Virus record (IMG/VR): IMGVR_UViG_2690316347_000013
Direction: 5' to 3' (one strand)
From: a virus
Taxonomy: Duplodnaviria; Heunggongvirae; Uroviricota; Caudoviricetes
Length of the DNA stretch: 4,807 nt
The position numbers and the translations under genes were made by a program. Shown piece after piece: positions 2,744 to 4,807 of this stretch (positions are counted from its first letter, which is position 1; every line of letters starts with the position of its first letter). Below the pieces are notes generated by a model. The model worked only from the letters and a program-made list of their open reading frames with translations, was not told the origin of the DNA and did not search any database.

Positions 2744-3031
2744 TCAATCCTGCTCAAGATTGTAGATGAGTTTATTCTTCAGCAAAAGCAGAAAACCAGC
2801 CTTAAAACCAATCTCTTTCAAAACCCGTAATGATGTGACAAATTCGTCCTCACGCAAAATAAAACCGTCCGTCAGAAGTCCATTACAAAAATAAAATAAC
2901 ACAGCACCGCTCTTCCTTTGTTGAGATTGCAAACATCTAATGCGGCAATGGCTGACAATCGCTCCATTCTCAACGCGCACAGCATAGAGGCCATTTTCAC
3001 TAAAAATTTCACGCAATTCTTCGATTTTCAT
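2744..3031 (-). CDS. Hypothetical 95-aa protein, AT-rich orphan gene
   Basis: ATG at 3031 with GGAAGGA about 8 nt upstream; TGA stop at 2744-2746. Protein MKIEELREIFSENGLYAVRVENGAIVSHC... has no motif I recognise. Codon usage is visibly more AT-rich than the neighbouring genes. It occupies the position that rem holds in the K-12 Qin prophage, but I cannot confirm homology. Confidence 0.55.
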   Translation of the reverse strand: MKIEELREIFSENGLYAVRVENGAIVSHCRIRCLQSQQRKSGAVLFYFCNGLLTDGFILREDEFVTSLRVLKEIGFKAGFLLLLKNKLIYNLEQD

Positions 3032-3112
3032 CTTCAGAATCCTTCCAGATAAATAGCTCTCCCCTGTTCGGGGTCCATCCCTCTTCTCCCTGCGCGCTAC
3101 TTAAGTGAGTCG

Positions 3113-3140
3113 ATTCTATCTGCGAAGGTGCGCGAATCAA
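3113..3140 (-). promoter_or_regulatory. Candidate sigma70 promoter for the 95-aa gene (TTGATT-16-TAGAAT)
   Basis: On the minus strand, TTGATT (3140-3135) and TAGAAT (3118-3113) are separated by 16 bp, immediately downstream of the hok terminator. A small CCCC-GAACA-GGGG hairpin lies in the predicted 5' UTR (about 3061-3075). Confidence 0.4.
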
Positions 3141-3150
3141 ATTCACCGGA

Positions 3151-3203
3151 AATAAACAACAAAAAACCCGCCGAAACGCTGAGAGATCACAGCGATGGGC
3201 GGG
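3151..3203 (-). terminator. Rho-independent terminator at the 3' end of the hok mRNA
   Basis: Minus-strand hairpin CCCGCC...GGCGGG (3203-3167, with inner CGCTG/CAGCG pairing) is followed by TTTTTTGTTGTTTATT (3166-3151). Confidence 0.65.
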
Positions 3204-3211
3204 TTAAGTGC

Positions 3212-3224
3212 GGGTGCGTTGAGG
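3212..3224 (-). other. hok mRNA 3' fold-back-inhibition (fbi) element
   Basis: Minus-strand CCUCAACGCACCC is complementary, with one bulged C, to the predicted mRNA 5' end GGGUGCUUGAGG (3606-3595). This reproduces the 5'-3' pairing known for hok mRNAs. Confidence 0.6.
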
Positions 3225-3280
3225 ATGCCTGACACATCAGAGGTGGGCGGGGATGGGATCAGCTCCCCGCCCGGTCACTC

Positions 3281-3436
3281 TTACTTCCTGGATTCGTAGT
3301 CTACGAAGACAGCGACCTCCGTCTGGCCGGTTCGGATTCGTACCTCACAGAGGTCTTTCCTCGTTACCAGTGCCGTCACTATGACGGTTAAACAGATGAC
3401 GATCAGGGCGATTAACATCGCCTTTTGCTGCTTCAT
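3281..3436 (-). CDS. hok: Hok-family type I toxin (51 aa), HokD/Gef-like
   Basis: MKQQKAMLIALIVICLTVIVTALVTRKDLCEVRIRTGQTEVAVFVDYESRK is close to HokD/HokC as I recall them. AAGGAG lies 9 nt upstream of the ATG at 3436. Confidence 0.9.
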   Translation of the reverse strand: MKQQKAMLIALIVICLTVIVTALVTRKDLCEVRIRTGQTEVAVFVDYESRK

Positions 3437-3493
3437 AGCCTGCTTCTCCTTGCCTTTCGGCATGTAAGAGGCTAACCTACATGTGCAAAGCAT
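3281..3493 (-). CDS. mok: Mok, an in-frame N-terminally extended reading frame overlapping hok (70 aa)
   Basis: ATG at 3493 with GAGG 8 nt upstream. The N-terminus MLCTCRLASYMPKGKEKQA resembles MokC (MLNTCRVPL...KEKRA) as I recall it, and the frame is shared with hok. Confidence 0.65.
   Translation of the reverse strand: MLCTCRLASYMPKGKEKQAMKQQKAMLIALIVICLTVIVTALVTRKDLCEVRIRTGQTEVAVFVDYESRK
3450..3478 (+). promoter_or_regulatory. sok promoter (TTGCCT-17-TAACCT)
   Basis: The plus-strand sequence cTTGCCTttcggcatgtaagaggcTAACCT aligns position for position with the plasmid R1 sok promoter region as I recall it (cTTGCGCaaagcgcggtaagaggcTATCCT). Confidence 0.55.
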
Positions 3494-3558
3494 GAAATTG
3501 GCCTCAGATTAATGTTAAGCGTCTTGCCGGACGCGTAATGTTAACTGGGGCTTTTCTC
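3485..3558 (+). ncRNA. sok: Sok antisense RNA (antitoxin), about 70 nt
   Basis: The predicted start, about 7 nt after the -10 box, lies antisense to the mok start codon and ribosome-binding site (3491-3505). A stem-loop GTTAAGCGTC/GACGC..TTAAC at 3514-3545 is followed by the T-rich CTTTTCTC. Ends are approximate. Confidence 0.5.
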
Positions 3559-3612
3559 TATCTGCCTTTTGGTGTTCATGCCTGAAGCAGATAGCCTCAA
3601 GCACCCGCAGTC

Positions 3613-3642
3613 ATTCTACTTACCTCGCCAATATGAAATCAA
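3613..3642 (-). promoter_or_regulatory. Candidate hok/mok mRNA promoter (TTGATT-18-TAGAAT)
   Basis: Minus-strand TTGATT (3642-3637) and TAGAAT (3618-3613). The predicted start near 3606 coincides with the conserved GGGUGCUUGAGGCU mRNA 5' end, which is followed by an 8-bp stem (3594-3587 with 3565-3558). Confidence 0.5.
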
Positions 3643-3663
3643 TCAGAAAGGTGCCCCATAAAA

Positions 3664-4350
3664 TCACTCCTTCTCTTCTTTACCGTAGTGGAGTTGACCA
3701 ATTTTGATAAGAGGGCGTCCCTGAGATTTGCGGTGTAGATTGGTATCGCGCAGAGAATACACACAGCCACAATATTCCTGCTGATAGAATTTTTCGCGCT
3801 TGCTGATTTCAATCATACGGGACGAGCCGCCCTGCTTGCGCCAGTTATAATCCCAGTACACCATGCCCGGATAATGCGCGACGGCTCGCCGCCCACAGTC
3901 GTTAACCTGCTGCATATTTTTCCAGCGTGAAATGCCCAGTGAACTGCTGATCACACTGAAACCATTTTCAGCGGCGTACAGCGCTGTCCGCTCAAAACGC
4001 ATGTCAAAACACATGGTGCAACGGATCCCTCGTTCGGGCTCCCATTCCATTCCTTTGGCTCGTTCAAACCAGTTGTCTGTGTCGTAATCAGCATCAATAA
4101 ACGGCACGCCGTGTTGTTCAGCAAAGCGAATATTCTCATCCTTACGAATTAAATACTCTTTCTGAGGATGAATGTTCGGGTTGTAGAAAAAGATGGTGTA
4201 GTCGATTCCCGAGGCCTGAAGCGCCTCCATCACCTCACCGGAACATGGAGCACAGCAAGAGTGCAGTAGTAGTTTGTTTGCCCCGTTTGGGAGCTCCAAT
4301 TTGGGCCGTTTGAAATCAGCAACTGTCATAAATATGTTTATTGGGGTCAT
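3664..4350 (-). CDS. queH: QueH-like epoxyqueuosine reductase (DUF208 family), 228 aa
   Basis: Family hallmarks are visible: [37 protein letters not shown] and FYQQEYCGC. Start is ambiguous between ATG 4350 and ATG 4329; neither has a clear Shine-Dalgarno sequence. Confidence 0.75.
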
Positions 4351-4656: not shown

Positions 4657-4743
4657 CCAGTCAAACGGCTCCACAACCGCACCGCAGATTTTACAGCGGA
4701 CCTGACGCTCTTTTTCGTCAACCCGTACTGAGGTAGCCTGAGT

Positions 4744-4772
4744 TTAACGGACACTCCTTCCTGAAATAGAAT
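4744..4772 (+). promoter_or_regulatory. Possible promoter for the plus-strand gene at 4793 (weak -35, TAGAAT -10)
   Basis: TAGAAT at 4767-4772 with TTAACG/TTTAAC about 17 bp upstream, correctly placed ahead of the ribosome-binding site at 4781. Confidence 0.25.
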
Positions 4773-4792
4773 GGCATCAGAAGGAGCTAATA

Positions 4793-4807
4793 ATGAGCAG
4801 AAAAACC
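4793..4807 (+). CDS. 5' end of an unidentified plus-strand gene (MSRKT...), truncated by the window
   Basis: AAGGAG at 4781-4786 lies 6 nt before ATG 4793. Only 5 codons are visible. Confidence 0.35.

Follow-up and report, generated by a model that had tools for sequence, protein, structure and literature searches.

Does a Hok-like reading frame in a prophage riddled with insertion sequences (IS) belong to a complete type I toxin-antitoxin locus, or is it what remains of one? Here, we describe the analysis of a 4,807-base stretch of viral DNA (IMG/VR record IMGVR_UViG_2690316347_000013; hereafter the window), and conclude, with a probability of about 0.88, that an intact hok/mok/sok type I locus of the hokW/sokW type occupies 3642-3160 on its minus strand, in an IS-riddled, Qin-like Shigella/E. 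coli prophage. Every element of the locus is present, intact and conserved, and each has its predicted pairing. A preliminary description of the same DNA, made from the letters alone, had proposed a complete locus of plasmid R1-type architecture at 3150-3607. Its completeness and architecture are borne out by family models, by folding of full-length and truncated RNA beside an R1 control, and by covariation across 66 loci; the elements that it listed are found at the positions given or beside them, well above chance, and the hok promoter falls outside that range, at 3642-3613. The locus is of a kind already known: it is nearly identical to the annotated and experimentally studied hokW/sokW, and its protein is named HokD in RefSeq.

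The window is a fragment of a lambdoid prophage, taken from its nin region, with an insertion sequence at each side. A complete IS911 (about 1-1249; orfA/orfB with an A6G frameshift site) comes within 15 nt of the stop of a Q-like gene, and the left end of an IS600 (4729-4807) is identical in 79/79 nt to the ends of annotated IS600 copies. These flanks indicate a Shigella-type genome and a disrupted prophage. All genes between IS911 and IS600 lie on the minus strand, namely the Q-like DUF1133 gene (1265-1822), a YbcO/DUF1364 gene (1816-2106), a DUF1367 gene (2106-2705), a 95-aa rem homologue (2744-3031) whose product shares 68% identity with Rem of K-12 Qin, the hok locus, and directly upstream of hok the gene queH for epoxyqueuosine reductase (3664-4350; Pfam QueH, 1.9e-65). 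Shigella flexneri SFBU1023 and 'E. coli' FDAARGOS_943 carry the window segment at 99.6-99.8% identity, and at the FDAARGOS_943 locus (99.8% identical) the prophage around hok carries IS1, IS2, IS600 and pseudogenes. The queH-hok junction occurs in 675/5426 complete E. coli genomes; no paper on prophage-borne QueH in E. coli was found in the open literature. A second promoter-like site, TTGATT-16-TAGAAT (3113-3140, minus strand), shares both hexamers with the hok promoter and precedes the rem-like frame; its -10 region is conserved upstream of K-12 rem.

The hok toxin gene (3281-3436, minus strand) encodes 51 amino acids and has a Shine-Dalgarno (SD) sequence, GGAG, at 3449-3446. Its product matches Pfam PF01848 (HOK_GEF; 4.3e-23) with 81 bits against a cut-off of 22, retains the conserved Cys, Thr, Leu and Glu positions, and is exactly the protein of RefSeq WP_014532198.1, 'type I toxin-antitoxin system toxin HokD'. 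The mok frame (70 codons; 3281-3493, minus strand) is in frame with hok and ends at the same stop codon. Its AUG (3493-3491) stands 8 nt downstream of the SD sequence GAGG (3505-3502), a layout that matches annotated mokW and mokC. A comparable mok is found in 57/74 family loci, in frame with hok in 30 and in the +1 frame in 27. The Tyr47 codon of Hok lies within CUACGAA (3292-3298, minus strand), which is also the anticodon-loop sequence of tRNA-Arg(ACG). CUACGAA is the context in which A-to-I editing by TadA has been reported for hokB and also, at the corresponding Tyr, for hokC, hokD and hokE.

The promoter of the hok/mok mRNA, found by promoter scan at 3613-3642 (minus strand), lies 22 nt past the queH stop codon and comprises -35 TTGATT (3642-3637), an 18-nt spacer and -10 TAGAAT (3618-3613); the -10 hexamer aligns with TAGAAT of hokW, TATAAT of hokC, TAGGAT of hokB and TATGAT of R1. 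Transcription probably starts at G3606, the first base of the conserved GGGUGCUUGAGG, so that the mRNA would have the 5' end GGGUGCUUGAGGCU (3606-3593). The first 12 nt are the tac element, GGGUGCUUGAGG (3595-3606, minus strand), which pairs with fbi or, in the Rfam structure and by RNAalifold, with ucb; the tac region is identical to that of hokW in 14/14 nt. Between tac and ucb is a 5' hairpin (nt 13-49; 3558-3594, minus strand) of 8 Watson-Crick and 2 G-U pairs, matching the 8-bp stem-loop that had been seen behind the 5' end, and compensatory changes occur at several of its pairs among 66 loci. The ucb element, or anti-SD box, AAGCCCC (nt 54-60; 3547-3553, minus strand), pairs with the mok SD sequence in the closed fold and with tac in the open fold; in the minimum free energy (MFE) fold its C57, C58 and C60 pair with G105, G104 and G102 of the mok SD sequence. 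The Sok-target hairpin (mok SD/dcb stem, nt 102-139; 3468-3505, minus strand) has the loop CUUUGCA and holds the mok SD sequence and AUG. It is present in the Rfam alignment and forms in the tac/ucb-constrained fold of truncated RNA, and the U-turn (YUNR) motif of its loop, here UUUG, is found in 30/65 family loops.

The leader as a whole matches Rfam RF01794 at 3606-3431 (minus strand) with 117 bits (gathering score 59; E 4e-27) over model positions 1-157 of 157. Since the match is on the hok-sense strand and begins with tac, it is evidence for the mRNA leader and not directly for an antisense RNA. The model, named 'sok', spans the hok mRNA from +1 to the hok AUG and thus represents the hok leader rather than Sok RNA; strand calls made from it are therefore misleading.

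Downstream of the hok stop codon, the GC-rich hairpin that the preliminary description had noted (3245-3272, minus strand) has 9 bp, a 10-nt loop and a predicted energy of -19.4 kcal/mol, and a post-stop hairpin is found in all 66 aligned loci. Presumably, it is the terminal stem of the active mRNA left by processing, about 362-364 nt long. In R1, the corresponding stem protects the truncated mRNA, which is abolished by stem-weakening mutations (PMC9841398). The fold-back inhibitory element fbi, CCUCAACGCACCC (nt 383-395; 3212-3224, minus strand), follows, with a bulged C at 3218. A terminator had been described as closing the transcript, and a terminator-like hairpin (3205-3166) with U6 (3165-3160) is indeed present (together 3160-3205, minus strand; -22.3 kcal/mol), but in an atypical two-tier form that corresponds to the K-12 hokD terminator with a 23-nt loop insertion. 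A simple terminator scan of 3050-3750 found none, because the loop exceeds the limit of the scan, and the terminator was assessed by folding instead. The 23-nt insertion, CCATCGCTGTGATCTCTCAGCGT (about 3173-3195, minus strand), is specific to the window lineage and makes an extra 5-bp hairpin.

Homology to phage-borne hok cassettes stops at fixed points in the window, 3199-3202 and 3626-3661. The first is about 10 nt 3' of fbi, and the second corresponds to -20 of the hok promoter in Stx phages or to the queH stop in mEp460-like phages. These fixed ends suggest a mobile cassette of about 425-460 bp. As the homology to phage copies stops shortly past fbi, the terminator would belong to the Qin-type context and not to the mobile cassette, and with this context-specific, insertion-bearing terminator the 3' end assigned to the primary transcript is tentative.

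The predicted antisense gene lies on the plus strand. Its putative promoter (Psok; 3450-3478) has -35 TTGCCT (3450-3455), a 17-nt spacer and -10 TAACCT (3473-3478), in the position equivalent to TTGCGC-17-TATCCT of R1 and with the R1-like layout that had been claimed for it, and would start transcription at about 3485. The consensus promoter scan did not flag Psok, which matches 7/12 consensus positions, the same number as the R1 sok promoter, and it was assessed by alignment to R1 and sokW. The region is identical in 43/44 positions to the sokW promoter region, which itself matches the consensus no better and in which mutation abolishes antitoxin activity (PMC8621323). The predicted Sok RNA of ~71 nt (3485-3555, plus strand) maps onto the annotated sokW misc_RNA of phage 933W, with a terminator arm identical in 43/43 positions. 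Its predicted fold (-30.2 kcal/mol, z -4.8) leaves the 5' tail single-stranded and continues with a long, imperfectly paired terminator hairpin, which has a 16-nt extension common to the hokD/hokW clade, and with a CUUUUCUCU tail. This RNA is complementary to nt 52-122 of the hok mRNA, which include the mok SD sequence and AUG, so that Sok would lie over the ribosome-binding site and start of mok as the preliminary description had proposed.

A transcript of 451 nt (3606-3156, minus strand) was folded, giving -191.5 kcal/mol against -138.7 +/- 6.0 for shuffled sequences (z = -8.8); 0/100 shuffles folded as well. The MFE fold pairs nt 1-12 (tac, 3606-3595) with nt 383-395 (fbi, 3224-3212) through 12 bp with one bulged C, at probabilities of 0.97-1.0 for every pair, which agrees with the 12-bp, one-bulge pairing of the two transcript ends expected from reading the letters. 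The same fold has the mok SD sequence base-paired with the GCCCC box (nt 56-60), the arrangement of the closed R1 mRNA with its elements as defined previously (PMC9841398). The positive control was an intact R1-type locus (L011), 100% identical to the queried parB sequence; two other R1 candidates were set aside (L004, cut by IS150, and L005, without tac). In full-length RNA, the closed tac/fbi fold is favored over a forced tac/ucb fold by 13.1 kcal/mol for the window and 16.6 kcal/mol for R1. Truncation at the base of the post-stop hairpin (to 364 nt; 361 nt for R1) removes the tac/fbi clamp, and the open tac/ucb fold, with the Sok-target hairpin presenting the mok SD sequence and AUG, then lies 1.6 kcal/mol above the optimum (5.5 kcal/mol for R1). 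The near-optimality of the open fold is seen only by constrained folding, the plain MFE structure of the truncated RNA being a local 5' hairpin for the window and R1 alike. In this test, the predicted closed and open folds of the window RNA behave the same way as those of R1.

The two alternative pairings were also followed across the family. An alignment of 9 Hok proteins had no stretch conserved enough to search by; the comparison set came from a DNA pattern scan on the conserved Psok/hok-SD block (one genome per species, 120 stretches), and is accordingly biased towards loci that keep this block. Requiring a tac motif and an intact toxin frame, 74 distinct hok loci were extracted, and in most of them the best duplex for the first 12-14 nt is formed 45-57 nt past the stop codon. 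The two sides vary together: tac GGGUGCUUGAGG co-occurs with fbi CCUCAA-C-GCACCC, GGGUGCUUGAGA with UCUCAA-C-GCACCC, GGGUGCCUGAGA with UCUCA-U-GGCACCC, and GGCGCUUGAGG with CCGCAAGCGCC. In an alignment of 66 loci from other species, 87.2% of the cells of the tac/fbi helix are paired, compared with 31-58% when the partner is slid by 1-3 columns, and compensatory changes are found at pair 4 (UA to CG, 40 vs 25 sequences) and pair 12 (GC to AU, 28 vs 16); the distal half of the helix is undercounted here, because the position of the bulge shifts between subfamilies. What RNAalifold recovered from the same 66 loci was the tac/ucb hairpin, in which tac position 7 (column pair 7/72) shows UA to CG covariation; it did not return tac/fbi, which was therefore tested as a named structure and sequence by sequence. 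Covariation thus ties one set of tac nucleotides to two alternative partners, which is the signature of the hok switch.

Among known systems, hokW/mokW/sokW of Stx2 phage 933W (Sakai prophage Sp5; AF125520) is 91.9% identical to the window locus over nt 1-395, and the cassette 3202-3626 is 92% identical to its counterpart in 933W and in further Stx phages, in which hok, mok and sok all carry annotation. The two loci have identical tac, ucb, fbi region and Sok terminator arm, an in-frame mok and the 16-nt Sok hairpin extension, and their Hok proteins are one residue apart (R50 vs E50). They differ in the hok -35 region, in the post-stop hairpin, which is remodelled in the window, and in the terminator after fbi, present in the window and not in 933W. 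Their positions differ as well, with the window copy in the queH-rem interval of the nin region and hokW near the right end of the 933W genome. Experiments have shown hokW/sokW to be a toxin/RNA antitoxin pair that requires RNase III and Hfq and helps the phage to be released (PMC8621323).

In K-12, hokD (relF) of the Qin prophage occupies the same slot upstream of rem, with a Hok 90% identical to that of the window and with the same fbi and core terminator. Homology to the window starts only at the hok SD sequence, immediately after relE, so K-12 hokD is without the promoter, tac, ucb, Sok target, mok start and sok. The contrast that had been drawn with hokD of Qin therefore holds, the window keeping its own promoter, mok and sok. 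The accompanying statement that queH takes the position of relBE is correct as loose synteny (the upstream neighbor is queH in the window and relBE in K-12), but in Qin relBE replaced the 5' half of hok as well as the upstream neighbor. The window locus is the untruncated counterpart of K-12 hokD, and shows the form that this remnant had until relBE took the place of its regulatory half. Loci of hokD type that are intact and encode the K-12 protein occur elsewhere as well (for example L039, L088 and L107).

More distant systems retain the same plan. R1 hok/sok (parB) has the same order and spacing of elements and a processed mRNA that nearly equals the predicted window species in length (361 nt vs about 362-364 nt), at 62% nucleotide identity and 41% Hok identity. 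It differs from the window in its +1-frame mok, in its shorter Sok hairpin and in tac (GGCGCUU, against GGGUGCUU in the window), with fbi and ucb changed to match. E. coli hokC (gef)/mokC/sokC has 78% Hok identity, an in-frame mok, and the same tac sequence. In K-12, hokC is without the Sok hairpin extension and an IS186 ~20 bp past its stop codon has removed the fbi region, and hokA, hokC and hokE all have IS150 or IS186 insertions flanking or cutting them.

From its likeness to R1 and hokW, we infer that the window locus may be functional, being transcribed, processed and toxic and having a biological role. By homology with R1, a moderately strong promoter would give a stable mRNA of about 395-450 nt. 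In the full-length RNA, tac would be clamped to fbi and ucb would mask the mok ribosome-binding site, permitting neither translation nor Sok binding. Slow 3'-exonucleolytic trimming to the post-stop GC hairpin would remove fbi; tac could then pair with ucb, the target hairpin would present the mok SD sequence and AUG, and translation of mok would drive coupled translation of hok. While the short-lived Sok was being made from the opposite strand, it would pair with the target, and RNase III would cleave the duplex. Once Sok synthesis stopped, Hok would be made and the inner membrane damaged. Neutralization of Hok by Sok, duplex cleavage by RNase III and killing upon Sok decay have been described only for the relatives R1 and hokW (PMC9841398, PMC8621323).

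Candidate roles for such a module are maintenance of the prophage, assistance in lysis (as for hokW) and exclusion of other phages. It is possible, if on balance doubtful, that the module is active and serves not in prophage maintenance but as an aid to host lysis at induction, as hokW/sokW does, or in superinfection exclusion by abortive infection. In favor of such a role, hok shares its strand with the early genes of the nin region, so that read-through from upstream would run against Psok. Against it, the prophage looks non-inducible in this lineage, with terminase and head genes disrupted in L001, and the genomic position is not that of hokW in 933W.

It is unlikely that the locus is an intact-looking but silent relic, carried passively in a decaying prophage and neither killing nor stabilizing. 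IS911 and IS600 interrupt the prophage within the window, the FDAARGOS_943 locus has the further insertion sequences and pseudogenes given above, and in a host prophage degraded in this way the module may be under relaxed selection. Several chromosomal hok loci are likewise reported to be silent, intact-looking copies among them lacking post-segregational killing (bioRxiv 10.1101/2025.08.07.668861, citing Pedersen and Gerdes). What argues against a relic is that neither reading frame and none of about 12 cis elements carries a disabling change, that the regulatory elements are identical to those of the experimentally active hokW/sokW or one position off, and that R1 hok is toxic from a single chromosomal copy (PMC9841398). 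That the resemblance is due to chance, or that a hok pseudogene has been mistaken for a complete locus, is hardly conceivable and is refuted by the E values of 4e-27 and 4e-23, the fold z of -8.8 and the 92% identity of the cassette to hokW.

For an intact, hokW/sokW-type locus in this position, a further mode of control is conceivable. There is no terminator between queH and the hok promoter, and hok is on the strand of the early rightward genes in the nin region. It is a long shot that early-operon read-through at induction collides with the convergent sok promoter, may give 5'-extended hok transcripts and so couples Hok release to induction; if true, Hok would be released by transcriptional interference and not by Sok decay alone, and the lineage-specific 23-nt insertion in the terminator might in addition adjust read-through into rem.

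As one more prophage-borne hok/sok copy beside the thousands catalogued, the locus has little import beyond annotation. For annotation it is of use, in that automatic pipelines call only the Hok coding sequence (as HokD) and leave mok, Sok and the cis elements unannotated. S. flexneri SFBU1023 (CP182556.1) has at least three hok loci, of window type (L056), hokB type (L020) and intact hokD type (L088). Its two hokD/hokW-type copies have the Sok hairpin in common and differ in the Sok 5' tail and the target loop, so cross-talk between them would be limited.
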